A stretch of DNA of 36,533 nt from a virus, in UHGV virus genome UHGV-0135234. The stretch is one strand, 5' to 3'. Positions 9,429 to 29,543 of this stretch are shown here, piece by piece; position 1 is the stretch's first letter, and each line of letters opens with the position of its first letter. Below the pieces are notes generated by a model. The model saw only the letters and a list, made by a program, of their open reading frames with translations. It searched no databases and was not told where the DNA came from. The position numbers and the translations under genes were made by a program.

Positions 9429-9759
9429 ATCAGCAGCAGAGCGCAAAGCCGCTCAGAGAGCCAGACAAGCTGCATCTGGTGTGCGTAAGCTGGAAATTGT
9501 GCTTGATGCTCAGGAAATTGAAATGCTGGAGCGTAACTGTGCCACGCGTCGCCCCGGGCGTGCGCCTTACGAATTTGGTGAGTATATAGCGTTATTGATC
9601 CGCCAGGATGATGCACGCGTGCACGGGCGTATAAAATCGATCAGCAGAAAACGTTGCGGTAAGTGCGGCGAGAGAGTTCCAGTTAATTCATGCCCGTGTA
9701 ATGGTGACTCGCAATGCTGGGTGACTAAAGGCTGGCATGAAACGAAATTAATAGTGTGA
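9421..9759 (+). CDS. Cys-rich small protein (possible zinc-binding regulator)
   Basis: 112 aa; C-terminal CGKCGERVPVNSCPCNG; last gene before packaging operon. Confidence 0.5.
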   Translation: MAKSAAERKAAQRARQAASGVRKLEIVLDAQEIEMLERNCATRRPGRAPYEFGEYIALLIRQDDARVHGRIKSISRKRCGKCGERVPVNSCPCNGDSQCWVTKGWHETKLIV

Positions 9760-9808
9760 CATGTTACGAGTAGATTATGCATGATGAATTTGATGGGTTT
9801 TGAATACT

Positions 9809-9834
9809 GCCGCCAACTATGGCGGCTTTATTTT
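9809..9834 (+). terminator. rho-independent terminator upstream of terS
   Basis: gccgcc-aactat-ggcggc followed by TTTATTTT. Confidence 0.65.
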
Positions 9835-9845
9835 GCATGGTACTA

Positions 9846-9860
9846 TTACCACAACGGTAA
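9846..9860. promoter_or_regulatory. operator palindrome TTACC-N5-GGTAA upstream of terS
   Basis: ttaccacaacggtaa; preceded by TACTAT -10-like hexamer; direct repeat CTATTACCAC at 9843 and 9861. Confidence 0.55.
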
Positions 9861-9877
9861 CTATTACCACGGTGGTT

Positions 9878-10474
9878 ATGATGCCTGCTGAACCTAAAAC
9901 CTATAAACGCAAATCAACGCAATTTAAGCCGCTCACAGCAATGCAGGAGGCTTATTGCCAGTCATACATCAAAACGCCTGAAAACCAGACTCAGGCAGCG
10001 ATTAACGCAGGATTCTCCCCAAATACAGCGGCAGTTAAAGCCAGTGTCATGATGCGCGATGAACGCATTCAAAAACGGATTGCCGAGTTGATGGAGGAGC
10101 GCAACAAACGAATGCGCGTCAGTGCTGATTACGTTCTCATGCGCCTGGTGGAGATCGACCAGATGGACGTGATCGACATCCTCAACGACGATGGTAGCCT
10201 TAAGCCAATCCGCGAGTGGCCGAAAATCTGGCGCACTACGCTTAGTGGCTTTGATCTGTCATCGACCATCATGAACATGAACGAGGATTCGATAGAGACA
10301 ATCCTCAAAAAAATTAAATGGCCTGACAAGGTGAAGAACCTCGAACTGATTGGTAAGCACGTCGACGTCAACGCATTCAAAGAACGCCTGGATGTTAATG
10401 TGAATGTGACAATTGCTGATCGCATAGCGGCAGCCAGGAAGAGACTGAAAGAACGTCAGGATGGCAATCAGTGA
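9878..10474 (+). CDS. terminase small subunit
   Basis: ORF 9800..10474; ATG at 9878 or 9881 (upstream part contains the terminator); pattern resembles small-terminase family (QEAYCQSYIKTPENQTQAAINAGFSPNTAAVKASVMMRDERIQKRI). Confidence 0.75.
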   Translation: MMPAEPKTYKRKSTQFKPLTAMQEAYCQSYIKTPENQTQAAINAGFSPNTAAVKASVMMRDERIQKRIAELMEERNKRMRVSADYVLMRLVEIDQMDVIDILNDDGSLKPIREWPKIWRTTLSGFDLSSTIMNMNEDSIETILKKIKWPDKVKNLELIGKHVDVNAFKERLDVNVNVTIADRIAAARKRLKERQDGNQ

Positions 10475-11946
10475 CAGATACAGCGTTATCTCCTGAAGAG
10501 CAGTTAATCGAGGATATTGCAGGGTTCACTCACGATCCGCTTGGCTATGCCCTCTATGCGTTCCCGTGGGGGGAAGAGGGTACTGAACTGGCACATGCCA
10601 CCGGTCCACGTCAGTGGCAGGCCGATGCGTTCCGAGAGATACGTGATCACCTGCAGAATCCAGAGACGCGATATCAGCCGCTTATGCTGGCACGCGCTTC
10701 TGGTCACGGTATTGGTAAATCCGCATTCATCTCAATGCTGATCAACTGGGGCATGTCCACTTGCGAGGATTGTAAGGTCGTGGTGACCGCCAACACCGAC
10801 AACCAGCTACGAACGAAGACCTGGCCGGAAATTATCAAGTGGTCGAACCTTGCCATCACGAAAGACTGGTTTACCTGTACCGCTACCGCGATGTACAGCA
10901 ATGATCCTGGGCACGACAAGCGGTGGCGAGCTGACGCAATCCCCTGGTCTGAGCACAACACTGAGGCATTCGCCGGACTACACAACGAGCGCAAACGCAT
11001 CATCGTGGTTTTCGACGAAGCATCCAACATTGCCGATCTGGTGTGGGAGGTAGCAGAGGGTGCGCTGACGGACGAAGACACCGAAATCATCTGGGTGGCG
11101 TTCGGGAACCCGACGCGTAATACCGGGCGTTTCCGCGAATGTTTCCGCAAATATAAACACCGCTGGAAGTGTGCGCAGATTGACAGCCGGACGGTGGAAG
11201 GCACTAACAAACAGCAGTTGCAGAAATGGGTTGATGACTACGGGGAAGACAGCGACTTCGTTAAAATCCGTGTGCGCGGCATATTCCCTGATGCATCTGA
11301 ATTGCAGTTTATCCCTACCGGTCTTACTGATGAGGCAATGAAACGGGTGGTAACCGCTGCGCAGGTGGCGCATGCTCCGGTGATAATCGGTGTTGACCCG
11401 GCATATTCAGGCGTTGATGACGCGGTGATATACCTGCGGCAGGGGCTACACAGTAAGGTGCTGTGGACTGGCAACAAGACTACCGACGATCTGATTATGG
11501 CGAAGCGTATCGCTGACTTTGAAGACCAGTATCAGGCTGACGCGGTGTTCATCGACTTCGGTTACGGAACCGGTTTGAAGTCAATCGGTGATGGCTGGGG
11601 GCGTACATGGCAACTTGTTCCGTTCGGCGGTGCGTCCACTGACCCGCAGATGCTTAACAAGCGTGGGGAGATGTTCAACTCATGTAAGACATGGCTGAGG
11701 CTGGGCGGCATGCTGGATGACCAGGAAACTGCAGACGACCTGTCGGCGGCAGAGTACAAAGTTCGCGTGGACGGTAAAATCGTTATCGAACCGAAGGAGG
11801 ATATCAAGGAGCGGCTTGGGCGTTCGCCGGGTAAAGGCGATGCGCTACTGCTGACGTTTGCGTTCCCTGTGTCGAAGCGTCTGCGAATTCCCGGGCAGCA
11901 GAACCAGCAAGGCAAGGCCATCACAGATTACGATCCCTATGCTTAA
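10471..11946 (+). CDS. terminase large subunit
   Basis: 491 aa; GTG start overlapping terS stop (GTGA); Walker A-like ASGHGIGKS; position and size. Confidence 0.85.
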   Translation: MTDTALSPEEQLIEDIAGFTHDPLGYALYAFPWGEEGTELAHATGPRQWQADAFREIRDHLQNPETRYQPLMLARASGHGIGKSAFISMLINWGMSTCEDCKVVVTANTDNQLRTKTWPEIIKWSNLAITKDWFTCTATAMYSNDPGHDKRWRADAIPWSEHNTEAFAGLHNERKRIIVVFDEASNIADLVWEVAEGALTDEDTEIIWVAFGNPTRNTGRFRECFRKYKHRWKCAQIDSRTVEGTNKQQLQKWVDDYGEDSDFVKIRVRGIFPDASELQFIPTGLTDEAMKRVVTAAQVAHAPVIIGVDPAYSGVDDAVIYLRQGLHSKVLWTGNKTTDDLIMAKRIADFEDQYQADAVFIDFGYGTGLKSIGDGWGRTWQLVPFGGASTDPQMLNKRGEMFNSCKTWLRLGGMLDDQETADDLSAAEYKVRVDGKIVIEPKEDIKERLGRSPGKGDALLLTFAFPVSKRLRIPGQQNQQGKAITDYDPYA

Positions 11947-11997
11947 TCCGCTGGTGGGGATAATGTCGTTGATATCCTCTGGTGAGGATAAAACAAA

Positions 11998-12023
11998 GCC
12001 AGCTCATAGGCTGGCTGTTTGTG
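11998..12023. terminator. bidirectional terminator between convergent terL and Gp49-like gene
   Basis: gccagc-tcatag-gctggc hairpin; T-rich on minus side (TTTGTTTT). Confidence 0.5.
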
Positions 12024-12032
12024 ACATGTCAC
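12021..12032. repeat. 12-bp palindrome GTGACATGTCAC (copy 1)
   Basis: Perfect palindrome abutting terminator and stop of Gp49-like gene; identical copy at 29532..29543; near copy at 9756..9767. Confidence 0.6.
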
Positions 12033-12036
12033 GGTG

Positions 12037-12417
12037 TTATTGCTCGCTTAGCTTCTGCTTCAGCAAGTAACCTTCGAGCATCCAGATTTTGTTTACAGCA
12101 TTCTGCCGGGCAATCTTCCGACCAATTTCTGCATCAAAGTTTTCCGGGCTTGCACAGGCGCTCTCTCCGGTGACGGTGAAGCCATTCTTCAGCACCAGTA
12201 CGCAGAAAGTGAGCAACTTCAATGGTGATAAATCACGATCGCCTTCTTCTGGTTTTTCCCTGCCACAATATTCGTTGCTGGAAATGGCACCATTACGTCC
12301 ATCATAAGCAGTAAAGTAATGCTCGCTTTTAATCACGTCTTCGATGTGCTGCGGAGTGATTCTCGGAGCGGTTTTGCCTTTCTCAACGATTTCTTTTTCG
12401 ATTTGCTGGTCGTTCAT
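12037..12417 (-). CDS. Gp49-like phage protein (unknown function)
   Basis: 126 aa; AAGGTG SD; reverse-oriented inside late region; conserved block LTFCVLVLKNGFTVTGESACASPENFDAEIGRKIA. Confidence 0.55.
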   Translation of the reverse strand: MNDQQIEKEIVEKGKTAPRITPQHIEDVIKSEHYFTAYDGRNGAISSNEYCGREKPEEGDRDLSPLKLLTFCVLVLKNGFTVTGESACASPENFDAEIGRKIARQNAVNKIWMLEGYLLKQKLSEQ

Positions 12418-12615
12418 AATCTCACCTTAAAAAAATGCCCGGCGAACCGGGCGAACTGGAAGCAATGAGTTATGCCTTCCGTGGCTGTACGGGTTTACAG
12501 CATGAAGTCATCGCAATGGCGTCCTGCTGTAAAAAGGGCGGTGATAGTCCTTCAAGGGAAACCATCACCGCCAAGCACCTGGAACTTCTGGCATCACGGT
12601 CCTTAGGCGTGATTC

Positions 12616-12692
12616 TGGCGTGGCATGCAGGATTCGAACCTGCGACCAACCGCTTAGAAGGCGGTTGCTCTGTCCAACTGAGCTAATGCCAC
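12616..12692 (-). tRNA. tRNA-Arg (anticodon UCU)
   Basis: 77 nt GTGGCATTAGCTCAGTTGGACAGAGCAACCGCCTTCTAAGCGGTTGGTCGCAGGTTCGAATCCTGCATGCCACGCCA; 7-bp acceptor stem, D-arm GCTC/GAGC, anticodon loop CTTCTAA, T-loop TTCGAAT, encoded CCA. Confidence 0.9.
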
Positions 12693-13021
12693 AACGCTGA
12701 GAGCACTGGTTTGGCTCGATATCAGGTAGGGTGGAACAGCCCGCTAATATCCAATGCTCTCATCGTTGTACCCTCGTCTCTTCCGAGGCGTCACACCGAA
12801 TCGCCGGGATGGTGAATCCCCGTGCGCGGAATAAAACCGCTCGACTTGCACATTCCGGCTACCTGGTTCGTTTGCCCGAGCAAGGGAGGGTGCCCCTTAA
12901 ACGTATCCAGACCGCTATCGGCGCATGTGCCATACGCCGTACTGCTCAAAATAAAAGCTCACTCCACCTGTTCAATTTAACGACAAGCCAGTCAGGTTAG
13001 TAACCGGAATGAACTCTTTGG

Positions 13022-13036
13022 TTACCTGAAAGGTAA
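13022..13036. promoter_or_regulatory. operator palindrome TTACC-N5-GGTAA upstream of head operon
   Basis: ttacctgaaaggtaa. Confidence 0.55.
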
Positions 13037-13126
13037 TAATTTGTGCGTTAAATGTCAACTATCTACGATAAATAAATCATATGTGGTTAAATTGGTAATA
13101 ATTTAATTGCGTACGGAGTCATTGAT

Positions 13127-13333
13127 ATGTGCATGGGTAGCTCACCATCAGTGCCTGCAACACCAGAAGTTCAGGCAGCACCACAGGAGCAGGATGCCGC
13201 CGTTGTTGATGCCCGCGACGAAGAAACTCGTCGCCGTCGCGCTGCTGCTGGTCGTAGTTCTACGCTGCTTACCGGTTCTCAGGGCGACACATCAACCGCT
13301 AATACCAGCGGTAAAACGCTACTTGGTCAGTAA
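13127..13333 (+). CDS. hypothetical small protein preceding portal
   Basis: 68 aa; same initiation context (cggagtcattga + ATG) as the portal gene. Confidence 0.4.
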   Translation: MCMGSSPSVPATPEVQAAPQEQDAAVVDARDEETRRRRAAAGRSSTLLTGSQGDTSTANTSGKTLLGQ

Positions 13334-13347
13334 CCGGAGTCATTGAA

Positions 13348-15027
13348 ATGGCGGAAACAACTAAAGAGCGATTGAACAAACAGTTCGCACAACTTGAAAG
13401 CGAGCGTCAGTCGTTCGAGCCGCACTGGCGCGAGTTGAGTGATTACATCAACCCGCGTGGTTCCCGCTTTCTGACTTCTGAGGTCAACCGTAACGATCGA
13501 CGCAATACACGTATTATTGATTCGACCGGGACTATGGCGGCGCGCACTCTCGCCAGCGGCATGATGTCAGGCATCACAAGCCCCGCGCGTCCGTGGTTTC
13601 GCCTGGCTACGCCAGATCCTGAAATGATGGATTATGGCCCTGTTAAGTTGTGGCTTGAGGCGGTGCAGAACCGCATGAACGATATGTTCAATAAGTCGAA
13701 TCTCTACCAGTCTCTTCCGCAGTTATACGGAAGCCTCGGCACATACAGCACCGGTGCAATGGCGGTACTGGAGGATGACGAGGACATCATTCGCACAATG
13801 CCATTCCCGATAGGCAGTTACTACCTGGCTAACTCACCTCGTGGCAGTGTGGACACCTGTTTTCGCAAGTTCTCTATGACTGTTCGTCAGCTTGTTCAGG
13901 AGTTCGGGCTAAATAACGTCAGCGAATCTGTAAAAAGCATGTGGGAAAGCGGCACCTACGAGAAGTGGATTGAAGTGATGCATTCGGTTTACCCGAACAT
14001 TGACCGCGATACATCGAAGCTGGATAGCAAGAACAAGCCATTCAAATCGGTTTATTACGAGGTTGGCGGCGATAACGACAAGTTGTTGCGTGAGTCCGGA
14101 TTCGATGAGTTTCCAATTATGGCTCCGCGCTGGGAAGTTAACGGCGAAGATGTTTATGGATCATCGTGCCCGGGTATGCTGGCGCTTGGACCTGTTAAGG
14201 CATTGCAGCTTCTCCAGAAGCGCAAGTCGCAGTTGATTGATAAAGCCACCAATCCGCCGATGGTTGCTCCGACTTCCCTCAAGAATCAGCGCGCCTCCCT
14301 TCTTCCTGGCGACATCACGTATATCGATCAGATTACTGGTCAGGATGGCTTCAGGCCTGCTTATCTGGTTAACCCCAGTACAGCAGATTTGGTGGCAGAC
14401 ATTCAGGACACTCGTCAAATCATTAACAGCGCCTACTTTGTCGATCTGTTCATGATGTTGCAGAACATCAATACCCGCTCGATGCCTGTTGAAGCGGTGA
14501 TCGAAATGAAAGAAGAAAAACTTCTGATGTTGGGGCCGGTTCTGGAGCGTCTGAACGACGAATGTCTTAATCCTCTCATTGACCGCGCTTTCTCGATGAT
14601 GGTGCGTAAAAACATGCTGCCGCCACCGCCTGACGCGATGGAAGGCATGCCCCTGAAGGTCGAATACATTTCCGTCATGGCTCAGGCGCAGAAGTCTATC
14701 GGCCTGTCCAGTCTGGCGTCCACGGTTAACTTCATTGGTCAACTTGCGCAAGCGAAACCAGAAGCTCTCGACAAACTCAACGTTGATCAGGCGATCGATG
14801 CATTCGCTGATATGTCCGGAGTGTCTCCAACCGTCATTGTTCCGCAGGAACAGGTTGAGCAGGCTCGCCAGCAACGGGCACAGCAGCAACAGCAGCAACA
14901 AATGATGGCGATGGGGATGGCGGCGGCACAGGGTGCCAAGACGCTAAGCGAAGCTAAAACTTCGGATCCGAGTGTTTTGTCAGCTATGGCGAATGCAGTT
15001 AGTGGTCAGGGTGGGCAATCACAATGA
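13348..15027 (+). CDS. portal protein (T7 gp8-like head-to-tail connector)
   Basis: 559 aa; C-terminal Gln/Met/Ala-rich tail (QQRAQQQQQQQMMAMGMAAAQG) like the T7 portal C-terminus; position after terminase. Confidence 0.85.
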   Translation: MAETTKERLNKQFAQLESERQSFEPHWRELSDYINPRGSRFLTSEVNRNDRRNTRIIDSTGTMAARTLASGMMSGITSPARPWFRLATPDPEMMDYGPVKLWLEAVQNRMNDMFNKSNLYQSLPQLYGSLGTYSTGAMAVLEDDEDIIRTMPFPIGSYYLANSPRGSVDTCFRKFSMTVRQLVQEFGLNNVSESVKSMWESGTYEKWIEVMHSVYPNIDRDTSKLDSKNKPFKSVYYEVGGDNDKLLRESGFDEFPIMAPRWEVNGEDVYGSSCPGMLALGPVKALQLLQKRKSQLIDKATNPPMVAPTSLKNQRASLLPGDITYIDQITGQDGFRPAYLVNPSTADLVADIQDTRQIINSAYFVDLFMMLQNINTRSMPVEAVIEMKEEKLLMLGPVLERLNDECLNPLIDRAFSMMVRKNMLPPPPDAMEGMPLKVEYISVMAQAQKSIGLSSLASTVNFIGQLAQAKPEALDKLNVDQAIDAFADMSGVSPTVIVPQEQVEQARQQRAQQQQQQQMMAMGMAAAQGAKTLSEAKTSDPSVLSAMANAVSGQGGQSQ

Positions 15028-15320
15028 CAGATTACGAAGACGATAAACTGAAAGAAGAAAACGCCCGTAAGCAACGTGACATGGCGCAGCGTGAAATTGA
15101 TGACATTCGCTTTGTCATGAGCAGTGAACAGGGGCGTCGCGTTGTCTGGTCGGTGCTGGAGAAAGGCCGTGTGTTTTCCGCTATCTCACCGATGGACGCT
15201 ATGGCAATGGCATTTAATGAGGGGCAACGCAATCTGGCGCTGGAACTGTTTCAGCGCGTTATGGCGCATTGCCCTGAACAGTATTTGAAGATGGCCAAAG
15301 AGGCCAGTGAACAGGAGTGA
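15024..15320 (+). CDS. hypothetical head-assembly protein
   Basis: 98 aa; ATGA-coupled between portal and scaffold. Confidence 0.55.
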   Translation: MTDYEDDKLKEENARKQRDMAQREIDDIRFVMSSEQGRRVVWSVLEKGRVFSAISPMDAMAMAFNEGQRNLALELFQRVMAHCPEQYLKMAKEASEQE

Positions 15321-15322
15321 TC

Positions 15323-16018
15323 ATGAATTTATTTGAGCGTTTGCTGTATCGCCGTCTTTGCAATGAGCAACCAGTCGATGGTGGAGCAGCTCCGGCTGCG
15401 TCAGAACCGTCAGCGCCTGCAGGTGATAACCCTGCTCCAGTTGGTGATCCATCACAACAGGAAGGTGATAAGCCACAACCTGTTGCTGATGGCGATAAAC
15501 CTGCTGATGACAAAAAGCCTGAAAACGATAAGCAGGATGAAAAAAAGGACGGCGATAAACCAGAGGGTGCGCCTGAGAAGTACGAGTTTCAGGCAGCCGA
15601 AGGCGTAGAGCTGGATACAGAAGCGTTGAAGGAATTCGAGCCGGTGGCGCGAGAACTTAACCTGACCAACGAGCAAGCGCAAAAGCTGGTTGATGCTTAT
15701 CCGAAGATTCTGGCAGGTGTTCAGCAGCGCCAGGCAGAAGCCTGGCAGAAAACAACCGAGCAGTGGGCTGCGGATGTAAAAGCTGACAAAGAAATCGGTG
15801 GCGACAAGTTGATTTCTAACCTTAGCGCCGCACAGCGTGCGCTTGACCAGTTCGGGACACCTGAACTCAAAGAATATCTGAACACCACCGGGCTGGGTAA
15901 TCACCCTGATCTGGTCAAAACGTTCGTGAAAATTGGAAAGGCGATGTCTGAAGATGGCATGGTCACCGGTGGTAATGAAGGCCAGCGTAGTGCGGCCGAA
16001 GTGCTCTATGGCAAATAA
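15323..16018 (+). CDS. scaffolding protein (putative)
   Basis: ORF 15317..16018 (GTG); ATG at 15323 with AGGAG SD; acidic, low-complexity Pro/Asp/Lys-rich N-region; directly precedes capsid gene. Confidence 0.65.
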   Translation: MNLFERLLYRRLCNEQPVDGGAAPAASEPSAPAGDNPAPVGDPSQQEGDKPQPVADGDKPADDKKPENDKQDEKKDGDKPEGAPEKYEFQAAEGVELDTEALKEFEPVARELNLTNEQAQKLVDAYPKILAGVQQRQAEAWQKTTEQWAADVKADKEIGGDKLISNLSAAQRALDQFGTPELKEYLNTTGLGNHPDLVKTFVKIGKAMSEDGMVTGGNEGQRSAAEVLYGK

Positions 16019-16026
16019 GAGAGGAA

Positions 16027-17019
16027 ATGACAATGGCTGTTAAAGGCTTAACTGCGCTAACGCTGGCTGACTGGGGTAAGCGCGTCGATCCAAACGGGAA
16101 AGTCGATAAGATTATCGAGCTTCTCGGTCAAACTAACCCGATCCTTCAGGATATGCCTTTTGTCGAAGGGAACCTTCCTACCGGACACCGAACCACCATT
16201 CGTTCTGGTTTACCTTCAGCTACCTGGCGTTTGCTGAACTATGGCGTACAGCCAAGCAAATCAACCACAGTGCAGGTAACCGATTACGTTGGCATGCTGG
16301 AAACCTATGCTGAAGTCGATAAGTCACTGGCTGATCTGAACGGCAATACCGCCGAATTCCGCCTGTCTGAAGACCGCGCATTTATTGAAGCGATGAATCA
16401 GCAGATGGCGCAGACGCTGTTTTATGGTGATTCCAGCGTTAACCCTCAGCAGTTTATGGGACTGTCCTCCCGCTATTCCAGCCTGTCTGCGGGTAATGCT
16501 CAGAACATCATTGATGCTGGTGGCACGGGTACAGATAACACCTCAATCTGGTTAGTGGTGTGGGGCGAAAACACCGTGCATGGCATCTTCCCGAAAGGGC
16601 AGAAGGCTGGCATTCAGATGGAAGATAAAGGCCAGGTGACACTGGAAGATGCTAATGGCGGCAAGTACGAAGGCTACCGTACCCATTACAAATGGGACAA
16701 CGGACTTGCTCTGCGTGACTGGCGTTATGTTGTTCGCATTGCAAACATCGATGTCAGCAATCTTTCAGAACCTTCCTCTGCCGCAAATATTGCGAAGTTG
16801 ATGGTTAAAGCACTGCATCGCATTCCAAATCGTGGCATGGGTCGCCCGGTGTTCTACATGAACCGCACTGTAGGCCAGGCTCTTGATCTGCAATCTCTGG
16901 AGAAAACATCTCTGGCGATCAGCGTAAAAGAGACAGAAGGCGAGTGGTGGACTTCATTCCGTGGTGTACCAATCCGTGAAACTGATGCGCTTCTGGAAAC
17001 AGAAGCCCGCGTGGTGTAA
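16027..17019 (+). CDS. major capsid protein
   Basis: 330 aa; strong SD GAGAGG; follows scaffold; followed by stem-loop 17036..17055. Confidence 0.8.
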   Translation: MTMAVKGLTALTLADWGKRVDPNGKVDKIIELLGQTNPILQDMPFVEGNLPTGHRTTIRSGLPSATWRLLNYGVQPSKSTTVQVTDYVGMLETYAEVDKSLADLNGNTAEFRLSEDRAFIEAMNQQMAQTLFYGDSSVNPQQFMGLSSRYSSLSAGNAQNIIDAGGTGTDNTSIWLVVWGENTVHGIFPKGQKAGIQMEDKGQVTLEDANGGKYEGYRTHYKWDNGLALRDWRYVVRIANIDVSNLSEPSSAANIAKLMVKALHRIPNRGMGRPVFYMNRTVGQALDLQSLEKTSLAISVKETEGEWWTSFRGVPIRETDALLETEARVV

Positions 17020-17070
17020 CGCCTGTTATTAACCTGTGGGTCGTAACAGACCCACTAATGGAGAAAGAAG

Positions 17071-17508
17071 ATGATCACCGACAAACTGTTGATGTTCTCC
17101 GAAGCTCAGGCGGTTACGAATACCGCGGCTTCTACTGACGTAATCGATCTCGGTCCAATTGACGGAAAACGTCGTGATATTGGCGTTGGTTACCCGCTTG
17201 AGTTTTGGGTGCTGGTTAACGAAGCCGCCACGGCAAGTGGTGAGGCAACTGTAAACATCCAGTTGCAGACGAGTGAGAATAACAGCTCTTGGACCACTAT
17301 TTATGATAGTGGTGCGTTGGCAAAGGCCACCCTGACAGCAGGTAAGCGAGTTGTTTCTGCAAAGGTGCCAGCCGGTGTTCAGCGATATCTGCGTGTTAAC
17401 TACTCCGTCGCAACTGGCCCACTAACGGCCGGCAAATTCACTGCGGGTATCAGTCTGGATGTTGATGCCAATACGCCGTATCCGATCCGCTCAAAAGTAA
17501 CTGGTTAA
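17071..17508 (+). CDS. putative capsid-associated structural protein
   Basis: 145 aa, Thr/Ala/Val-rich beta-type sequence; GGAGAAAG SD. Confidence 0.55.
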   Translation: MITDKLLMFSEAQAVTNTAASTDVIDLGPIDGKRRDIGVGYPLEFWVLVNEAATASGEATVNIQLQTSENNSSWTTIYDSGALAKATLTAGKRVVSAKVPAGVQRYLRVNYSVATGPLTAGKFTAGISLDVDANTPYPIRSKVTG

Positions 17509-17518
17509 GGTGATATCG

Positions 17519-17854: not shown

Positions 17855-17872
17855 GCCTCGCGAATCAGACAA

Positions 17873-17892: not shown

Positions 17893-17904
17893 GCAGGAGT
17901 GTAT

Positions 17905-21304: not shown

Positions 21305-21768
21305 TGATCGATGTTCAAATTATTCCCGCCACCGAAGAGCATCTTCAGATGATTTTGCCGGATGTTCGTCAGGCTGATATTGACGAACTGTATGCGGTAT
21401 CGCTGATGACTACCGAAGATGCGCTGCGTGTTGGTCTTCGCACTGCGACTATGGCCTGGTCAGGATTTGCGAACGGAGAACTGGTAACCATGTTTGGCGT
21501 ATCTCCGGCGTCAATGATCGGTGGCAATGGTACGCCCTGGCTGGTAGGAACCAGCCGTATTGAAAAATATCAGAAGACATTTCTGCGCCACTGCCGCCCT
21601 GTATTGCAGCAGATGCTGGCAGTTTATCCGCGCCTGGAAAACTACGTCGACGAGCGAAACCATGTTGCCAAAGCATGGCTGCACTGGCTTGGATTCAGGC
21701 TTGAAGAAGCCGCGCCTTATGGTGCTCTTGGTCTTAATTTCCACAGATTTCACATGGAGAGAAAATAA
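21304..21768 (+). CDS. internal virion protein (gp13 position)
   Basis: 154 aa; synteny only. Confidence 0.5.
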   Translation: MIDVQIIPATEEHLQMILPDVRQADIDELYAVSLMTTEDALRVGLRTATMAWSGFANGELVTMFGVSPASMIGGNGTPWLVGTSRIEKYQKTFLRHCRPVLQQMLAVYPRLENYVDERNHVAKAWLHWLGFRLEEAAPYGALGLNFHRFHMERK

Positions 21769-22313
21769 TGTGCGATCCGGTTATTGCTGGTGGCGCAATG
21801 CTCGCCATGAGTGGCATTCAGGCATACACCCAGTACCAACAGGGAAAGTATGCCTCGAAGGTTGCAGAAGCGAACGCAGATATAGCCACAGCTCAGGCAA
21901 ATGATGCAATAAACAGAGGTAACGCTGAAGCTGAGCAACGGCGCAGAGAGACCCGACAGCGGCTTGGTACACAGGCGGCGACAATGGGGGCTACCGGCGC
22001 TGATTTATCTACAGGTAACGCGCTGGATATATTTGGCGACACTGCCCAGTTTGGCGCTCTTGATTCTCTGACGACGGTGAATAACGCGCAACGCGAGGCT
22101 TACGGTTATCAGGTTCAGGCTGCCAACTATAAAGCAGAAGCCAGTTCAGCCCGTAAACAGGGGAATGTGGGAGCAGCAACAACATTGCTCACTGCGCCTC
22201 TGAAGGCATACGGTGCGTACCAGATGTTTGGTGGGACGTGGAGTCCGTTTACTCAAAGCACCCCTGCGCCAATCGGAGCAGCAGCAGGAACCAGATTACC
22301 CGGAGGATTATAA
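21768..22313 (+). CDS. internal virion protein (gp14 position)
   Basis: 181 aa; Ala/Gly/Gln-rich. Confidence 0.55.
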   Translation: MCDPVIAGGAMLAMSGIQAYTQYQQGKYASKVAEANADIATAQANDAINRGNAEAEQRRRETRQRLGTQAATMGATGADLSTGNALDIFGDTAQFGALDSLTTVNNAQREAYGYQVQAANYKAEASSARKQGNVGAATTLLTAPLKAYGAYQMFGGTWSPFTQSTPAPIGAAAGTRLPGGL

Positions 22314-24826
22314 TGCCAGTCGTACCAACAGTATCCGGACGTCAGGTTGAGAGCCGTGGAGTTCAGTCAGCAGGCTTGCAGACGTTTTCTCAGCCAGGTA
22401 TTGGTGATGCTTTTGTTCGGGCAGGGGCAGAGGCAATTGATGTTTTGGGGCAGGCAAAACAGCGTGCCAATATTGCCTTGGCTCAGGAGGCATCTCTTAA
22501 CCTCAGTCAGATAAGCAGTGATTTGCTGAATAATCCTGAAACAGGATTGCTTAACCTGAAAGGGAAAAATGCTATTGGAAAAGGCCATGAGTATACGCAG
22601 CAGTTTGATGCTCAGGTCGAACAATTGGCTATGTCGCTGCCGGATGAACAGGCTCGTAATGCTTTCATGCAGCAGGCGCAGCAGCAGCGCATTCAGTTCA
22701 CTACGCAGGCCGGGCGACACGAGATAGGGCAAATTAATGCCTACGAAGAAGGCCAGTTTCAGGCGACACTGCTGAACAATGGTAAAAATGCCGCAGCATT
22801 GTATGGCGACAACGCCGCATACGTATTGGCTAACAAACAAACTTTCCAGCAAATTGAGGAGTACGGTGTTGCACATGGCTGGAGCAACGAGCAAATCCAG
22901 GCCAAGAAAATCGAGTTTAAAGAGAAGGTTGCTGATGCTGCATTGTCCCAGTGGTCGGCAAACAATGCGACCGCATTCATCCAAAGTAATGGCGAGTTAA
23001 GTGATACTGCTGCTGGAGCTCGCCGTGCTGTAGCAGATAGTGACTCTTCCGAGCGTGCCCGTGGCATACGCAACAATAACCCAGGAAATCTCGAATACAG
23101 CAAAACTAATCCGTGGGTAGGCCAGACCGGTGATGATGGTCGATTTGCTAAATTCGAAACACCTGAACACGGGATTCGTGCATTAGGGCGGAACCTGATG
23201 TCGTATCAGAGGCAGGGTATTGATACCGTCAGCGAGATAATTAATCGCTGGGCACCGCCTGCTGATAAAAATGACACTATGTCGTATATCAAAGCAGTGT
23301 GCGAACAACTTGGCGTTTCTGCTGATGAGCCTCTCGATGCATCTAATCCTGATACCCTGAAGGCGCTTTGTGCAGCCATTATCCATCATGAGAACGGTAG
23401 CCAGCCATACAGTGATCAGCAGTTAACTGCTGGTGTCAGTGCAGCACTTGGTTTATCAACAATTCCAACCAACACCAAACGCTATACCGGTAATGCAGCA
23501 TTCGATGCGGCATCTCCTGAGGCGCAGGCAAGTTTTATGCGACAGGCGGATCAACTGCGTCGGCAGCAGCAGGCTGAATATAAAACGATGATTGACAGCC
23601 AGGTTCGCGATGCGACAGCTGCGTATATGCGTGGCGTTGAATTTCCTAACCCACCTGGTGAGGCTGATTTTATTGCAGCTTATGGAGTAAGAGAAGGAAA
23701 CCTGCGATATACCGAGTTCAGAAATACGCAAATCGCCGGACAGTATATAGGCTCTTTCCGCAACATGCCGACAAGCAGCATTACAGCATATGTTGAGCAA
23801 TTACGCCCGGATACTGGTGAGACAGGGGAGGGTTATGCGGCACGAGCCGCTCTTTATGACAACGTTGTGTCGGCTGCAAGTCAGGTGATAAAGCAGCGAC
23901 AGGCTGATCCTGTACAGTTCTCTCTTGCCGCCGGACAGACAAAGCCTATCGACATGAGCAATAAGGATAACTTTGGACAGAGCGTTGCCTTGCGTGCTGC
24001 TCAGGTCAGTGACCTTGCTAAGTCATATGGCACTCCACTGACGTTCTTTTCCAAAGACGAGGCCAATCAGATCGGTGTTTTCTTTCGTGATGCGCCCGTT
24101 TCCCAACAGGCAGCATATCTCGATACCATCAGGCAGAGCACTGGTGGTGGGCAGGTGTATATGTCAGCACTACAGCAGATCAGTGCCAACGCTCCATCTG
24201 CTGCCGTTGCCGGGATACTGATGGATAAGCCAGGTGGTATTTTGGCAGAAAAAAACTGGTTTAATCCGGATGTTTCCGTGTCTCCTGAAACCGCTGCGCA
24301 GACAATTCTTGCTGGAGCGGCGGCTCGTAAAGGTACTGATGATGCGAAAGGTATTCCGATGCCTAAAGATGCTGATCTTCGCCTTGAGTTTTCTGACATG
24401 GTGAAGGATGCATTTGCTGGTGACGCTCAGGGGGCATCAATGGCATACGAGATCGCAAAGGATTATTACGCTGGTGTGATGGCGAAAAAAGGCGTGGTAT
24501 CAGGCGAAATTGACAATGATGTCTGGAAACAGGCTGTTAACGTAGCTACAGGTGGCGTGCATGACTATAACGGAATGGGGAATGTCCTTTTGCCGTGGGG
24601 AATGTCTGCAGAGCAATTCGATAAGCAGGTTAATCAGGCTTGGAATGAACAAGTTGTCGGCTCCGGGATAAAAACACCGCCTGGTCAGTATGGTTTGCAA
24701 AGTTACGGCGATAGTCAGTACCTGGTGAAACTTGGTACTGGTTATCTGCTGAAAGATGATGGTTCTCCCGTTGTTCTTAATCTGACACAGAAACGTCAGA
24801 GATTCTCCGGAGATATTCCGCAATGA
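22313..24826 (+). CDS. large internal virion/ejection protein
   Basis: ORF 22238..24826; ATG at 22313 with GGAGG SD overlapping upstream stop; 837 aa; conserved block GIRNNNPGNLEY...WVGQ...RFAKF...GIRALGRNLMSYQRQG. Confidence 0.65.
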   Translation: MPVVPTVSGRQVESRGVQSAGLQTFSQPGIGDAFVRAGAEAIDVLGQAKQRANIALAQEASLNLSQISSDLLNNPETGLLNLKGKNAIGKGHEYTQQFDAQVEQLAMSLPDEQARNAFMQQAQQQRIQFTTQAGRHEIGQINAYEEGQFQATLLNNGKNAAALYGDNAAYVLANKQTFQQIEEYGVAHGWSNEQIQAKKIEFKEKVADAALSQWSANNATAFIQSNGELSDTAAGARRAVADSDSSERARGIRNNNPGNLEYSKTNPWVGQTGDDGRFAKFETPEHGIRALGRNLMSYQRQGIDTVSEIINRWAPPADKNDTMSYIKAVCEQLGVSADEPLDASNPDTLKALCAAIIHHENGSQPYSDQQLTAGVSAALGLSTIPTNTKRYTGNAAFDAASPEAQASFMRQADQLRRQQQAEYKTMIDSQVRDATAAYMRGVEFPNPPGEADFIAAYGVREGNLRYTEFRNTQIAGQYIGSFRNMPTSSITAYVEQLRPDTGETGEGYAARAALYDNVVSAASQVIKQRQADPVQFSLAAGQTKPIDMSNKDNFGQSVALRAAQVSDLAKSYGTPLTFFSKDEANQIGVFFRDAPVSQQAAYLDTIRQSTGGGQVYMSALQQISANAPSAAVAGILMDKPGGILAEKNWFNPDVSVSPETAAQTILAGAAARKGTDDAKGIPMPKDADLRLEFSDMVKDAFAGDAQGASMAYEIAKDYYAGVMAKKGVVSGEIDNDVWKQAVNVATGGVHDYNGMGNVLLPWGMSAEQFDKQVNQAWNEQVVGSGIKTPPGQYGLQSYGDSQYLVKLGTGYLLKDDGSPVVLNLTQKRQRFSGDIPQ

Positions 24827-26625
24827 GTTACTTTGGCCTTAATCCAGTAAACCAGAATCAGCAGCTTGACGAAGCAGCATCAAATCCAGCTGGCTTTAAC
24901 AGCGATGTTGGTTTTTTCGACAATGCTGTAGGAGCGGCATTGTCTGGTTTGTACTCCGGGCTGGTGGCAAAGCCAGATCAGTTGCTATGGGCAGGGATGG
25001 ATAAAATCGTATCCCCGATTGCTCAGTTTGTTAACGAAAACACCTCGCTCAATGATACTTCAGTTTCATACATTGCCGAGCAGAGAAAACTAGCAGAGCA
25101 GCAGGTTAAGCGGCTGACGCCTGATGCCGCGACAACTGGAACCGCTGGGCAGGTTCTTTATGGGTTGTTCGATATGGGCGGGCAGGCTGTTGTTGGTACA
25201 ACGCTCGGTGGTCCGGTCGGAGGTGCTGCGGCGGTAACTTCGCTACAGGGTTTTTCTGAGTTTGAACGGCTGACAGCACAGGGTGTTGATTTCAGGACGG
25301 CGCAGGAAGCGGGATTAGTGCAGGGCATTACTGCTGGTGCCGGAACGCTGATCCCTATAAGCCTCGGGTTACGTGCTGGTGGTGCGCTGGCGGAAGGTGT
25401 GGCGGCTCAGCTTGCACGGACGGGTGAAAGTTCAGTGCGACGCGCCGCAGCAACAGCAGTACGTGCAACGCCAGATATTGCCTATGCCGCAGGTACAAAT
25501 ATTGCGTTCGGTATGGCACAGCGTGGGCTTACTGCAAAAACGCTTCGTGATGGTGGCTATAGCGAAATGGCTAATCAGTATGATGTGTTGGATCGACAGG
25601 CAATTGCTATTGATGCTGTTCTTGGAGTGGCGTTTGGTGGTGTCGGCAGATTTATTAACTCTCGCGGCGAGTCTACAAGCGCACCAAATTTTTCACCAGT
25701 TGATGTCGATGCTGCACTGGCGGCGAATGCCGCTCATCATGCTGAAATTGATATTGCTCCCGGTGTGCCGATCAACGTGCTTTCGCGTAATTCGCACATT
25801 CAGGCTCTGCGAAAAGCCATGTCTGATGTTAGCCAGGGGAGACCTGTAGACGTTGCCAGCATTGTTGAGTCTGCATCTTTCAGTGAAATTCCTGGGCGCA
25901 AGAGTCTGCTTTCTCAGGCAGTTAATGAGGCTCTGTCATCTGTAGATGATGGAGTAACGGCGCGCGCTATAGAAAATCGGTTGCTTGAAGAACAGGCCGC
26001 GCAGCTTTTGCCGCGTGGCGATAGACAGGTTTACCAGTCTGAAATCGCTAATAGCCAACGAATTATTGAAAATCTCACTGAACAGCGCGCACAAATTCTT
26101 GCAGAAGAGCCAACCGGTAGCGGTAAAGCTTTGTCTCGTGCTCGATCAGATAAACAGGCCAGACTTCGCGATATTGATCAACGAATCCGGCAGGCACAAG
26201 AACGCCTGGAGTTTTCCCGTAACGCGTTGGCACCGCACGAGCCTGGCGGTCAGTTTTTTGAAGCTCGAGCAGAACTGGCACGACGACAGCAGGCAGAAAG
26301 TGAACTTAATGCTCAGGCTGTTTCATTCTATAAAACAGCAGAGGTCAGGACGCCAGACGAAGTAGCTCCTTTTGAGCCCGGTAAGATATTGCAACAGACA
26401 GAACAAAAAATGATGGCAGATCCGGCAGGAGATATTGATCTGCGTATAGCTGAAGACTCGCTGCTTGAATCTCCGGACATGATAATCACCGTGCTGGATG
26501 ATGATGGTAATCCACAATCGCGCAGTGCGCGTGAAGTACTGGATGAAGCGAACAGGGAAAGTGAGCAGGCAATACAGGATTCCAGCCTGTTTGATGTTGC
26601 TGTGGCGTGTTTCTTGAGAGGTTAA
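24823..26625 (+). CDS. large internal virion/ejection protein
   Basis: 600 aa; Gly/Ala-rich hydrophobic segments; ATGA-coupled. Confidence 0.65.
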   Translation: MSYFGLNPVNQNQQLDEAASNPAGFNSDVGFFDNAVGAALSGLYSGLVAKPDQLLWAGMDKIVSPIAQFVNENTSLNDTSVSYIAEQRKLAEQQVKRLTPDAATTGTAGQVLYGLFDMGGQAVVGTTLGGPVGGAAAVTSLQGFSEFERLTAQGVDFRTAQEAGLVQGITAGAGTLIPISLGLRAGGALAEGVAAQLARTGESSVRRAAATAVRATPDIAYAAGTNIAFGMAQRGLTAKTLRDGGYSEMANQYDVLDRQAIAIDAVLGVAFGGVGRFINSRGESTSAPNFSPVDVDAALAANAAHHAEIDIAPGVPINVLSRNSHIQALRKAMSDVSQGRPVDVASIVESASFSEIPGRKSLLSQAVNEALSSVDDGVTARAIENRLLEEQAAQLLPRGDRQVYQSEIANSQRIIENLTEQRAQILAEEPTGSGKALSRARSDKQARLRDIDQRIRQAQERLEFSRNALAPHEPGGQFFEARAELARRQQAESELNAQAVSFYKTAEVRTPDEVAPFEPGKILQQTEQKMMADPAGDIDLRIAEDSLLESPDMIITVLDDDGNPQSRSAREVLDEANRESEQAIQDSSLFDVAVACFLRG

Positions 26626-26630
26626 ATTAA

Positions 26631-29105
26631 ATGAGACAGGAATGTATACAAGCGGTCCAGCAGGCGGCGCAGCGCACGTTAACGGCGCGAGAAATACAGA
26701 ACATTGAAGACCGCATTTATCGAAATATGCGCTCCATTGCTCGTGATGACCCGATGTCGTGGCGACAACTTTCCGAATCAGAACGGTTGTATCGTGCAGC
26801 ACAATTGGCATCTGAAGAATTACAGCGAGAAGCGGCATTAAAGAAACGTCGTGTGGCCCTCACTATAGCCGCACGTCAGAGATTGGATAAATTTATCAAT
26901 AGCTATCAAGGGGCTGATGGGAAACTTGGCGCTCTTAACCGTACTATTGCTTTTAATGCAGACGGTAAATCGAATTTCCTCTCTGTTGAATCCAGAACAA
27001 AAGCCACCCGTGATTATGCATTGAGTCAATTGCAGGAGGCATTCGAAGCAGTTGATCCTCGCTTTTTTGGTCTGTTTGAAGATGAAGCGGGCGTACGTGA
27101 CCTGGTATATGAAATGCGGGGGCAAAATACTGGCAATGCTAAAGCAAGAAAAGGTGCTAAGGCGTGGAGAGAAGTTACAGAGCTGCTGCGCCGCCGGTTT
27201 AATGATGCTGGTGGGGACATTGGCTATCTCGAAAACTGGGGGATCCCTCAACATCATTCTATGGAAAAGGTTGGGGCGGTATCAAAGGATAAGTGGGTTA
27301 GCGATGTTATAGGTAAGCTGGATCGCAAATATTATACCCGAGCCGATGGACAACTGATGAACGATGCCGAGTTGTCTGAATTTCTTGGAGAGGCTTATAA
27401 CACGATCGCTACTGGTGGGCTGAATAAGCTTACTGATACCGGAATGCGAATTTCCGGCGCACGTGCTAACCGTGGTAATGCATCACGACAGATACATTTC
27501 AAAGATGCAGATTCCTATCTGCAATATCAGCAACTTTATGGCGATCGCTCTCTATGGGAAATCATGGTCGGTCACCTGGAAGGTATCAGTAAAGATATTG
27601 CGCTGGTGGAAACATATGGCCCAAACCCCGATCATGTTTTCCGCTCCCTTCTTGATCAGGTTAAGGCAGAAACGGCAACAGCTAACCCGAGTAAAACCGG
27701 TAGCGTCGAGCGTCTGGCGAACAAAACAGAGAACTTGTACAACTTTATTTCCGGAAAAACACAGCCTGTAGCGAATCCGCACATCGCGCGATGGTCTGAC
27801 AATATCCGCAACTGGCTGGTTGCCAGCAGACTCGGATCCGCGTTGCTGTCATCGTTCTCTGATCTTGGAACCATGTATCTGTCTGCGAAGGTTACCAACC
27901 TTCCAATGAACCAGTTATTTCGCAACCAGCTTGAAGCTATGGACCCAACGAACCGTACAGAACTTGCGCGGGCGCGCCGCGCTGGCCTGGCGATGGAATC
28001 TCTACTTGGCAGCGTTAACCGCTGGGCGATGGATAATATGGGGCCGTCTGTGTCTCGTTGGGCGGCAACGGCGGTAATGCGTGCCAGTGGGCTTACAGCA
28101 TGGTCAGATGCGCACAAGCGCGCCTATGGCGTAACCATGATGGGAAGCCTGGGAGAAGTAGTGTCACGGACACCAGACCTTCGTAGCCTCGATGACTCTG
28201 ATTTTCGTATCCTGAAAAGCAAAGGGATTACTGACACAGACTGGAGCGTATGGAAGCTGGCGCAACAGGAGGACTGGGGGAACGGTAATAATACGATGCT
28301 GACACCGGAAAGCATTATGCGTATCCCTGATTCAGCAGTTAAACATCTTGGTGAGCCTGAACGCGTGAAATTTGAGGCAATGCGTAAACTGCTCGGTGCC
28401 GTAACTGAAGAAGTTGATATGGCTGTTATTACACCGGGCGCACGTGAACAGATGTTCGTAGGGTCTGGTCTTCAGCGTGGAACATGGAAAGGTGAATTAA
28501 CGAGAAGTGTTTTCCTGTTTAAATCGTTCCCTATCTCGGTAGTTATGCGTCACTGGCATAGAGCTATGGGGATGCCGTCTGCTGGTGGGCGTGCGGCATA
28601 TATAGCAACGTTTTTAGCAAGCACAACCATGCTTGGTGCTCTTTCCATGCAGATTACTGATCTTATTAATGGGAGAAATCCAAAAGAAATGACCGGTGAC
28701 AACATGGTTAAATTCTGGATAAATGCATTTTTAAAAGGTGGTGGGGCAGGGTTGTATGGTGATTTTCTTTTCTCTGACCACACCAGGTACGGGAGCGGCG
28801 CACTAGCGTCGATGCTTGGCCCGGTAGCTGGTCTGGTTGATGACGTAGTGAAGATTGCTCAGGGCATACCGTTAAATGCTGTGGAAGGGAAGAATGAGCA
28901 GACTGGTGGTGATCTGGTTAAGCTTGGGAAAGGTTTGATGCCTGGTGCGAATCTCTGGTACTTGAAGGCGGCTCTCGATCACATGATCTTTAATCAGATG
29001 CAGGAGTATTTTTCACCAGGCTATTTGCGTAAAATGGAGCAACGTTCGAAGAAAGAGTTTAACCAGACATACTGGTGGCGACCTCAGGATGTCACTCCGC
29101 AATAA
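26631..29105 (+). CDS. large internal virion/ejection protein
   Basis: 824 aa; last large protein of virion block. Confidence 0.65.
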   Translation: MRQECIQAVQQAAQRTLTAREIQNIEDRIYRNMRSIARDDPMSWRQLSESERLYRAAQLASEELQREAALKKRRVALTIAARQRLDKFINSYQGADGKLGALNRTIAFNADGKSNFLSVESRTKATRDYALSQLQEAFEAVDPRFFGLFEDEAGVRDLVYEMRGQNTGNAKARKGAKAWREVTELLRRRFNDAGGDIGYLENWGIPQHHSMEKVGAVSKDKWVSDVIGKLDRKYYTRADGQLMNDAELSEFLGEAYNTIATGGLNKLTDTGMRISGARANRGNASRQIHFKDADSYLQYQQLYGDRSLWEIMVGHLEGISKDIALVETYGPNPDHVFRSLLDQVKAETATANPSKTGSVERLANKTENLYNFISGKTQPVANPHIARWSDNIRNWLVASRLGSALLSSFSDLGTMYLSAKVTNLPMNQLFRNQLEAMDPTNRTELARARRAGLAMESLLGSVNRWAMDNMGPSVSRWAATAVMRASGLTAWSDAHKRAYGVTMMGSLGEVVSRTPDLRSLDDSDFRILKSKGITDTDWSVWKLAQQEDWGNGNNTMLTPESIMRIPDSAVKHLGEPERVKFEAMRKLLGAVTEEVDMAVITPGAREQMFVGSGLQRGTWKGELTRSVFLFKSFPISVVMRHWHRAMGMPSAGGRAAYIATFLASTTMLGALSMQITDLINGRNPKEMTGDNMVKFWINAFLKGGGAGLYGDFLFSDHTRYGSGALASMLGPVAGLVDDVVKIAQGIPLNAVEGKNEQTGGDLVKLGKGLMPGANLWYLKAALDHMIFNQMQEYFSPGYLRKMEQRSKKEFNQTYWWRPQDVTPQ

Positions 29106-29114
29106 GGAACAACA

Positions 29115-29528
29115 ATGAAGGAATTATTGCTGTTATCGGTATTTTTGATATCCGCTTGCTCGACATCCTATGATGTTTATGACGGTGTTGATAAGGCATA
29201 TTGCGACAAAGTTAAAATGGATTTTTCTCTTGCCAAGACGGCGAAGGATAGTTGTATTGATCACTACGTCAAGACTTATACCAAGCCAGCCTCATCGGCA
29301 TCTGATATTGCTGAAGGTGCTGTGTTTGAGTGTAACAAGGTGATATCCATCGCAGCGAGTTCTTCATACGATGCTGCTGTATGTGCAATGGCTGAAAGAA
29401 ACGGCATGTCAGTGCAAAAAATTAATAGCATGATAAGCAGTAATGACGAAGCCAAAATAAGAACTGATATCAGCTCGGTGAAAAAAGATGCCATGAACAG
29501 AGTTGTAAAATATCAGTCATCTTTATAA
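29115..29528 (+). CDS. lipoprotein (candidate superinfection-exclusion moron)
   Basis: 137 aa; signal peptide MKELLLLSVFLISAC with lipobox ISAC, Ser at +2; AT-rich; followed by palindrome and terminator. Confidence 0.6.
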   Translation: MKELLLLSVFLISACSTSYDVYDGVDKAYCDKVKMDFSLAKTAKDSCIDHYVKTYTKPASSASDIAEGAVFECNKVISIAASSSYDAAVCAMAERNGMSVQKINSMISSNDEAKIRTDISSVKKDAMNRVVKYQSSL

Positions 29529-29531
29529 GTC

Positions 29532-29543
29532 GTGACATGTCAC
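29532..29543. repeat. 12-bp palindrome GTGACATGTCAC (copy 2)
   Basis: Identical to 12021..12032; abuts terminator 29545..29568. Confidence 0.6.

Follow-up and report, generated by a model that had tools for sequence, protein, structure and literature searches.

The MatP protein binds to its site matS via a ribbon-helix-helix domain (PMC12756933). The 13-base-pair (bp) consensus of matS, GTGACRNYGTCAC, has a 3-bp spacer (RNY) between its two arms (PMC6907758). LacI binds to the operator O3 at the 3′ end of lacI, where the bound protein acts as a roadblock and limits its own synthesis via SsrA tagging (PMC3711431). In this study, a 12-bp palindrome is described which occurs three times at operon ends of the virus genome UHGV-0135234, a DNA stretch of 36,533 nucleotides (nt) that is called the window in the following. 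The palindrome is probably the operator of a small phage regulator of the gp49 family, and one of its copies encloses the stop codon of the regulator gene itself.

Further short elements provide a background for this comparison. The lambdoid linker or boundary sequences and the T4-type PeSL promoter-stem-loop cassettes are short and conserved, some of them with a stem-loop, and they edge variable cassettes with clustered joints. The binding site of the TetR-family host protein SlmA, GTGAGTACTCAC, is a 12-bp palindrome, and the consensus of CRP is TGTGA-N6-TCACA.

The window shows 95–97% nucleotide identity to the phages phiV10 and TL-2011b and to the O157 typing phages 9 and 10, and 80–83% to the Salmonella phage epsilon15. 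Based on these identities, it is assigned to a temperate podophage or prophage of the genus Uetakevirus, i.e., to the epsilon15/phiV10-like phages.

Three copies of the palindrome at operon ends

The motif GTGACATGTYAC matches the window exactly at positions 9756–9767 (site A, GTGACATGTTAC), 12021–12032 (site B) and 29532–29543 (site C), the latter two being perfect copies of GTGACATGTCAC. A previous reading of the DNA, made from its letters alone (the sequence-only reading), had reported a 12-bp palindrome at these positions, and the same coordinates were found again. By chance no copy is expected, since 100 dinucleotide-preserving shuffles gave no match. If two mismatches are allowed, only one additional match appears in the window, GTGACATGGCGC at 15076–15087. 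It lies inside a gp5-like open reading frame (ORF; 15024–15320), at a place where the relatives have GTGACATGGCAC, with one mismatch, and could be a weak fourth site or a coincidence.

According to the annotated records of phiV10 and epsilon15, the gene order starts with the early-right operon, whose last gene is small (gp49 in epsilon15, p55 in phiV10). Downstream are terS and terL, a short variable stretch in which a convergent gene and a tRNA are found, and the structural operon reaching from the portal gene to gp17. Next come a variable region for cargo and antirepressor, the gene of the tailspike, and finally those for lysis.

Site A carries a single mismatch (T10) to the family consensus GTGACATGTCAC, and its bases 2–4 are the TGA stop codon of the gp49-family gene (9421–9759, plus strand; ORF 9418/9421–9759). 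The early-right operon is ended by an intrinsic terminator (9809–9836, plus strand; hairpin 9809–9826 and a T-run) located 41 nt 3′ of site A, and Rep-operator-like sites and then terS follow 3′ of this terminator. Site B lies between a hairpin on the terL side and the stop codon of a convergent cargo gene. On the plus strand, terL, whose stop codon (11944–11946) is located 74 nt upstream of site B, is followed by the hairpin (11997–12016), the sequence GTTT and site B, so that hairpin and motif are 4 nt apart. With its T-run on the minus strand, this hairpin (11987–12016 including the T-run, minus strand) terminates the cargo gene (12037–12417, minus strand), the stop codon of which lies 4 nt from site B. 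The product of the cargo gene belongs to the family Phage_gp49_66 (Pfam PF13876, 3.4e-35) and was termed Gp49-like in the sequence-only reading, but is unrelated to gp49 of epsilon15.

At site C, the motif separates the last gene of the structural operon from the intrinsic terminator of this operon (29544–29571, plus strand), a GGCCGC-N4-GCGGCC hairpin (29544–29561) with a T-run, which abuts the motif and forms a conserved unit of ~30 bp together with it. The last gene (29115–29528, plus strand; phrog_8691) codes for a putative lipoprotein of 137 amino acids, as already proposed from the sequence, with the signal MKELLLLSVFLISAC and the lipobox LISAC. Its TAA stop codon (29526–29528) is found 3 nt upstream of site C. 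The gene occupies a variable position, the gp18 slot, in which other, unrelated small genes are found in phiV10, epsilon15, and Tyrion.

All three copies show the same order of gene stop, motif, and intrinsic terminator, with site B being read on the minus strand. The motif begins 0–4 nt past the stop codon, and the terminator follows within 0–41 nt. The stop codon in front of each copy, the terminator hairpin close by and the position at module junctions had all been claimed before and are borne out. The hairpins at site B on the plus strand and at site C on the minus strand lack a U-run, and the motif comes next instead.

Conservation and mosaic joints in epsilon15-like phages

Relatives were sampled from IMG/VR in two sets of 80 loci each (~160 in total), one anchored on the gp49 homologue and the other on the gp17 homologue at its C-terminus. 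In epsilon15, the perfect 12-mer is present at the gp49 stop codon, after terL, and at the gp18 stop codon, despite differing flanks. The perfect 12-mer was likewise found at these junctions in Tyrion, phiV10, and the Klebsiella phage BUCT711. The conservation at equivalent junctions which the sequence-only reading had called for is thus indeed found.

Site A was found in ~75 of the 80 loci and is perfect in essentially every locus reaching it. The C/T variation noted at this site is therefore real in copy A but peculiar to the window, as all other site-A contexts recovered carry the perfect palindrome. Site C is present in 78 of 80 loci, including four single-mismatch variants, and the remaining two loci end too early. 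Site B is mostly perfect, with few single-base variants. All 12 motif positions are at least 90% conserved over 20, 30, and 34 distinct contexts, and this conservation collapses at one edge of the motif, namely 3′ of site A, on the cargo side of site B, and 5′ of site C.

At site A, at least eight unrelated sequence classes follow the motif and a subsequent G. Among these are the terminator with Rep operators and terS, extra ORFs with a ribosome-binding site straight after the motif, morons that bring a promoter of their own together with an SOS box, one of which contains a umuD-like gene, and several other classes. The morons bring no second motif copy, and the number of copies per locus is unchanged. 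In one relative (L072), an insert is located between gp49 and the retained motif, which shows that the 5′ edge of the motif also serves as a joint. The left flank of site B is conserved, while its right flank consists of ~12 different minus-strand gene ends with stop codons 3–5 nt from the motif. By eye, some six or seven gene families are represented here, and a common stretch of 19 nt, GTGACATGTCACggtgTTA, is found in about half of the ends. At site C, at least four unrelated upstream alleles and at least three downstream continuations surround the conserved unit of motif and hairpin.

The copies thus mark module boundaries at which mosaic joints fall, and the one-sided split into unrelated classes makes this association stronger than it had been claimed. 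Two explanations fit these sequences alike. The motif may promote exchange, or selection may retain the motif so that the joints pile up at its edges.

Some further copies and variants were observed in the relatives. In the morons of L069–L072 and L078, a sigma-70-like promoter with a LexA box (CTGT-N8-ACAG) is located right after site A, between gp49 and terS. A decayed prophage of Xenorhabdus indica (L005, 10001–10343), which carries a gp49 pseudogene with an internal stop and an insertion sequence (IS) element nearby, keeps the perfect 12-mer 4 nt after the pseudogene. BUCT711 (L280) has extra copies in structural genes at 23066 and 26462, one of them perfect. In epsilon15 (L002, 26618–26629), the Rz gene, located at the end of the lysis cassette, has a degenerate copy, GTGACATGGCAT, overlapping its TGA stop codon. 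The window has another sequence at this place and does not share the copy.

Pairing of gp49-family gene and site in unrelated phages

Homologues of the gp49-family protein with 31–66% identity were identified in ZF40, in Yersinia P2-like, N15/phiKO2-like and Mu-like phages, in Vibrio phage K303, and in other phages. All of them carry the sequence GTGAC-N2-GTCAC, which is enriched at least 100-fold over chance in phages with a gp49 homologue. The palindrome GTGACATGTCAC is the epsilon15-lineage version of this wider element.

Usually, the element encloses the stop codon of the homologue itself. In the Pectobacterium myophage ZF40 (66% identity), GTGACATGTCAC is located 2 nt past the stop codon of the homologue, and two further perfect copies are present. 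In a Yersinia P2-like phage (42%), the TGA stop codon of the homologue lies inside of GTGACGCGTCAC. In the N15-like phage phiKO2 (37%), GTGACTGGTCAC encloses the TGA stop codon and is directly followed by the ribosome-binding site of the next gene. Homologues on the Vibrio side led to further clades, among them a Mu-like phage in which the 3′ coding end of the regulator gene and the transposase gene each contain a copy. Altogether, the TGA stop codon of the regulator gene is embedded in the site in at least four deeply diverged clades, each with another centre: epsilon15-like (AT), Yersinia (GC), N15-like (TG), and the loci L286 and L287 (AG). The C-termini of the proteins of these clades cannot be aligned, and the centres are largely uniform within each clade.

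The Yersinia-type clade (57 loci) contains 58 matches to GTGAC-N2-GTCAC (0.6 expected), 51 of which have the GC centre. In the N15-type clade (51 loci) there are 91 matches (0.56 expected), 89 with the TG centre. The N15-type loci have a second copy inside repA, and the two copies show opposite orientation relative to local transcription. This second copy of GTGACTGGTCAC in the repA replicase gene, found in the 51 N15-like loci (position 4664 of L199, corresponding to 37663 of the phiKO2 record), lies ~240 bp from an annotated plasmid partition site. Single genomes and loci outside of the clade scans have 2–4 copies each. An additional half-site is found 25–30 nt downstream in the Yersinia phages, and in L282 and L285 two sites in inverted orientation are separated by 33 nt. 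Either arrangement resembles an array of operators.

The spacing of the arms is strict. In ~3.3 megabases (Mb) of loci, 354 matches were counted for a spacer of two bases, whereas N0, N1 and N4 gave none, N3 one, N5 two, and N6 three. When all ORFs of the window were compared with seven unrelated motif-bearing phages or loci, some of them partial, gp49 was found in all seven and no other ORF in two or more. An epsilon15-like backbone without gp49 was sought and none was found; the candidate BUCT711 has both the gene and the sites.

The gp49-family protein

The gp49-family protein of the window (112 amino acids; phrog_536, epsilon15 gp49, phiV10 p55) combines a predicted ribbon-helix-helix domain with a basic helix at the N-terminus and a cysteine cluster at the C-terminus. 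It matches PHROG 536, which is annotated as transcriptional regulator, with an E value of 1.5e-54, and has no match in Pfam and NCBIfam. A Vibrio homologue matches PF10723 below threshold only (E 0.034). An AlphaFold2 model from a shallow alignment was too poor, with a predicted local distance difference test (pLDDT) score of 56, and was remade from a more diverse alignment. The model superposes on known members of the ribbon-helix-helix superfamily with their beta-alpha-alpha fold. A Foldseek search of the model against the PDB gave no significant match, the gp49 profile had no match to PDB sequences, and hhalign detected no homology between this profile and MatP (probability 0.09%). From the predicted fold, the family seems to be one of ribbon-helix-helix DNA binders.

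The family is widespread. In enterobacterial prophages, where gp49 is highly conserved, 613 matches were obtained, and the family comprises 233 clusters at 50% identity. A tblastn search of a phage collection identified homologues in 154 records of quite different phages. A scan of genome contigs with a single gp49 protein returned two loci only, and a profile-based protein search returned almost only close relatives.

A putative operator of the gp49-family regulator

The invariant 5-bp arms, the fixed 2-bp spacer, and the clade-specific centre point to a site for a symmetric DNA-binding dimer. Since the gp49-family protein is the only factor that travels with the element and is itself predicted to be such a binder, we consider GTGAC-N2-GTCAC to be the probable DNA operator of the gp49-family regulator, as far as sequence comparison and a structure model can tell. 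The regulator gene and its site appear to travel together as a cassette. Of the functions that had been proposed for the palindrome, a protein-binding site is thereby well supported by the pattern of arms, spacing, and centres and by the tie to one predicted ribbon-helix-helix family.

A gp49 dimer would bind both GTGAC arms. At operon ends, the bound protein may form a roadblock to RNA polymerase or an insulator, an idea which is based on the regulator stop codons inside of the site in several lineages and on the gene stops at most 4 nt away at sites B and C. As the stop codon lies inside of the site or few nucleotides from it, stalled transcripts would lack a stop codon. Such non-stop transcripts could lead to negative feedback on the last gene, as for LacI at O3 on lacI, and the roadblock would reduce transcription from one of the early, packaging, cargo, and structural units into the next. 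We hold this step only tentatively. The position beside terminators in the epsilon15-like phages suggests reinforced boundaries between these units. The association with terminators stressed in the sequence-only reading holds for the epsilon15 lineage, whereas the N15-like, P2-like, Vibrio, and Mu-like phages have no terminator adjacent to the element.

If the site must be kept, only recombinants retaining it would survive. In addition, the shared 12–19 bp may act as microhomology. Either selective retention or microhomology would suffice to place the mosaic joints exactly at the edges of the motif.

Several observations weigh against the assignment of the element as gp49 operator. Vibrio phage K303 (31% identity) has no copy at the regulator stop codon and three copies elsewhere. 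Two of these precede a start codon by 19 nt, one that of terS and the other that of a different gene, like conventional operators, so that the regulator may not act in the same way in every lineage. The third is found upstream of the holin gene, within the annotated 3′ end of a convergent gene. In at least seven related loci, site B and its hairpin are missing jointly, and another convergent gene abuts terL there. In the gp49 variant L004, the last codons and the motif are both lost, and site A of the window itself carries a mismatch. The sequence-only reading had named a random frequency of the element or its occurrence inside coding regions as evidence against a function. The frequency is far above chance, but some copies do lie within coding regions (ZF40, phiKO2 repA, BUCT711). 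The loci of several clades are partial, and a further shared protein may be encoded beyond their ends. The arms, 7 bp apart in a 12-bp site, are unusual for a plain ribbon-helix-helix dimer, and extra contacts therefore have to be assumed, e.g., by the basic N-terminal helix. Finally, a host factor of the same specificity could occupy the sites.

Alternative explanations

The clustering of joints would also be expected if the element were mainly a recombination linker, at which RecE/RecT-type or host recombination swaps cassettes and to which no protein binds. Sequences do part exactly at the motif edges at all three sites, about half of the site-B ends share a stretch longer than the motif itself, and the reference phages of the lineage encode RecE/RecT-type recombinases. 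The proposal of a mosaic linker is thus correct with regard to the position of the joints, but 12 bp are very short for homologous exchange, and the morons after site A have no second copy at their far end. A linker does not explain the architecture of arms and spacer with its strict N2 spacing and clade-specific centres, nor why P2-like, N15-like, Mu-like, and Vibrio phages embed the element in the stop codon of one particular gene family, nor the copies in conserved coding regions (phiKO2 repA, the Mu-like transposase gene). Moreover, a site kept by selection would just as well lead to exchange at the motif as a side effect. We regard a pure linker as unlikely. The strict spacing also bears on the idea that MatP or another host factor reading the GTGAC arms is the binding protein and that matS-like sites on the phage tie its DNA to the chromosome-organising machinery. 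The phage element has the same arms as matS, which is a striking resemblance, but its spacer is 2 bp instead of 3 bp, and in the scanned phage loci a single N3 match stands against 354 with N2. With a host factor, it is left unexplained why the centres are clade-specific and why the sites fall into a phage gene's stop codon, and the gp49 profile lacks sequence homology to MatP, which makes this explanation quite improbable.

A function on the RNA level, as processing site, 3′-end stabiliser, or part of a termination signal, would fit the window insofar as all copies lie in transcribed 3′ untranslated regions in the same order of stop codon, motif, and terminator, and the C10>T exchange at site A would preserve a G-U pair in the plus-strand RNA. 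Nevertheless, the folding energy of the isolated motif is only −1.2 kcal/mol, which is not better than that of shuffled sequences, and a 5-bp stem would leave a loop of 2 nt, unable to form. The N15-like copies are oriented oppositely to their transcripts, other clades have no terminator beside the element, and no Rfam match was found at the sites. A variable centre between invariant arms is a signature of a DNA-bound dimer. The RNA-processing site considered in the sequence-only reading is therefore not supported, and an RNA-level role in general is very improbable. The 12-mer could also have no function of its own and be a passively inherited, conserved tail with which the gp49 module and two terminators end, as four of its twelve bases at site A are coding or stop codon and a conserved hairpin adjoins it at sites B and C. 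Against this stand the identical 12-mer at three non-homologous places per genome and in unrelated phages such as ZF40 with its three copies, where none is expected, the retention of the motif in L072 despite the insert after gp49, and the centres that are largely uniform within a clade. A passive tail is extremely improbable.

In addition, a number of described element types were compared with the motif and rejected. The operators of the prophage repressor Rep annotated in epsilon15 have the sequence ATTACC-N5-GGTAAT, which is unrelated to the motif. The records of phiV10 and Tyrion start inside of copy A, which could hint at a genome end or a pac or cos site, but three copies per genome stand against a single packaging start, and Tyrion is circularly permuted, so that its record start is arbitrary. 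As −35 element of a sigma-70 promoter, GTGACA would have a −10 hexamer 16–18 bp downstream at every copy; a weak match (9/12) was obtained at site A only, and no −10 element was seen by reading the flanks of B, C, and the alternative contexts of A. An intrinsic terminator is not formed by the motif itself (−1.2 kcal/mol), the terminators being separate adjacent hairpins. Cassette sites like attC of integrons were rejected, as there is no copy at each cassette boundary and the morons after site A add none. The matS sequence itself does not apply with a 2-bp spacer in all phage copies instead of 3 bp, and a CRP site does not apply with the GTGA and TCAC blocks 4 bp apart instead of 6 bp.

Further features of the window

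The terminase genes are located between sites A and B, with terL at 10471–11946 on the plus strand. The variable region that separates site B from the portal operon contains a tRNA-Arg gene with the anticodon tct (12616–12692, minus strand), the probable reason for the many matches to Synechococcus phages in the initial similarity search.

The window also contains palindromes matching ATTACC-N5-GGTAAT, the consensus of the sites that the epsilon15 record annotates as bound by the repressor, at 3691, 4403, 6734, 6796, 9845, 9863, ~13021, ~30461, ~31501, and 31881. Such sites precede the early genes, terS, the portal operon, the antirepressor region, and the tailspike gene, which suggests a direct repression of each late operon by the prophage repressor.

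Furthermore, Rfam matches were obtained for a C4 antisense RNA (79.5 bits, 31284–31370, minus strand) and for isrK (74.7 bits, 31389–31465, minus strand). The two matches cover the region of the 5′ end of an ORF encoding a Bro-N antirepressor (30549–31388) and the sequence directly before it, which looks like the antisense control of the antirepressor in P1/P7-type phages.

Significance and comparison with known systems

A literature search for the 12-mer and its clade variants found nothing relevant; an earlier mention in the description of the epsilon15 genome is possible. An operator in the stop codon of its own regulator gene, repeated at operon 3′ ends and mosaic joints and common to many temperate phage groups, thus appears to be new. 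If the pairing of gp49 and GTGAC-N2-GTCAC is right, a widespread hypothetical phage protein, whose family spans epsilon15-, P2-, N15-, and Mu-like, lambdoid, and Vibrio phages, gains a cognate DNA site and a testable role, and the operator within the regulator's own stop codon with its repeats at operon ends represents an unusual design. It is also a tractable case for the old question whether mosaic joints at gene boundaries arise via selection alone or via short conserved boundary sequences. For annotation, GTGAC-N2-GTCAC is a simple marker of module limits and of cargo (moron) slots in these prophages.

The lambdoid boundary sequences and the PeSL cassettes are promoters or terminators within one phage group, while the phage 12-mer is a strict palindrome tied to one regulator family across groups. 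The SlmA site has the same outer GTGA and TCAC as the motif, and the inner four bases differ (GTAC versus CATG).

In its predicted fold, gp49 is like CopG, Arc/Mnt, omega, the ParD and MazE antitoxins, and TraM, with which it shares the small size and probably also short symmetric binding sites and autoregulation. It differs from the classical ribbon-helix-helix proteins by the additional basic N-terminal helix and the cysteine cluster. Their operators lie in promoters and usually form arrays for two or more dimers, whereas the phage element is a single 12-bp palindrome at 3′ ends.

A close likeness in sequence is found in matS, which has the same arms but comprises 13 bp with a 3-bp spacer, compared to 12 bp with a 2-bp spacer in the phages. 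Compared to MatP, which acts on the Ter macrodomain of E. coli, gp49 lacks the four-helix bundle and has a cysteine cluster in place of the coiled coil. The matS sites are located in the terminus region of the host, the phage sites at gene ends in phage genomes. It is a rather unlikely further possibility that gp49 and its sites form a phage-borne parallel of MatP/matS, in which the protein bridges or marks the sites and would create insulated chromosome domains as well as fixed joints that direct cassette exchange. If this was true, it would be a dedicated module boundary system common to temperate podo-, myo-, and siphophages and P2-like, N15-like, and Mu-like phages of gamma-proteobacteria.

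With regard to the position of the site, LacI at O3 is a close counterpart of the putative gp49 operator. In both cases, a palindromic operator lies over the 3′ end of the gene of its own regulator, and the bound protein would truncate the mRNA before the stop codon. The mechanism was demonstrated for LacI, whereas the roadblock in the phages is inferred. In contrast to O3, the phage site is embedded in the stop codon itself and recurs beside terminators at the ends of other operons.

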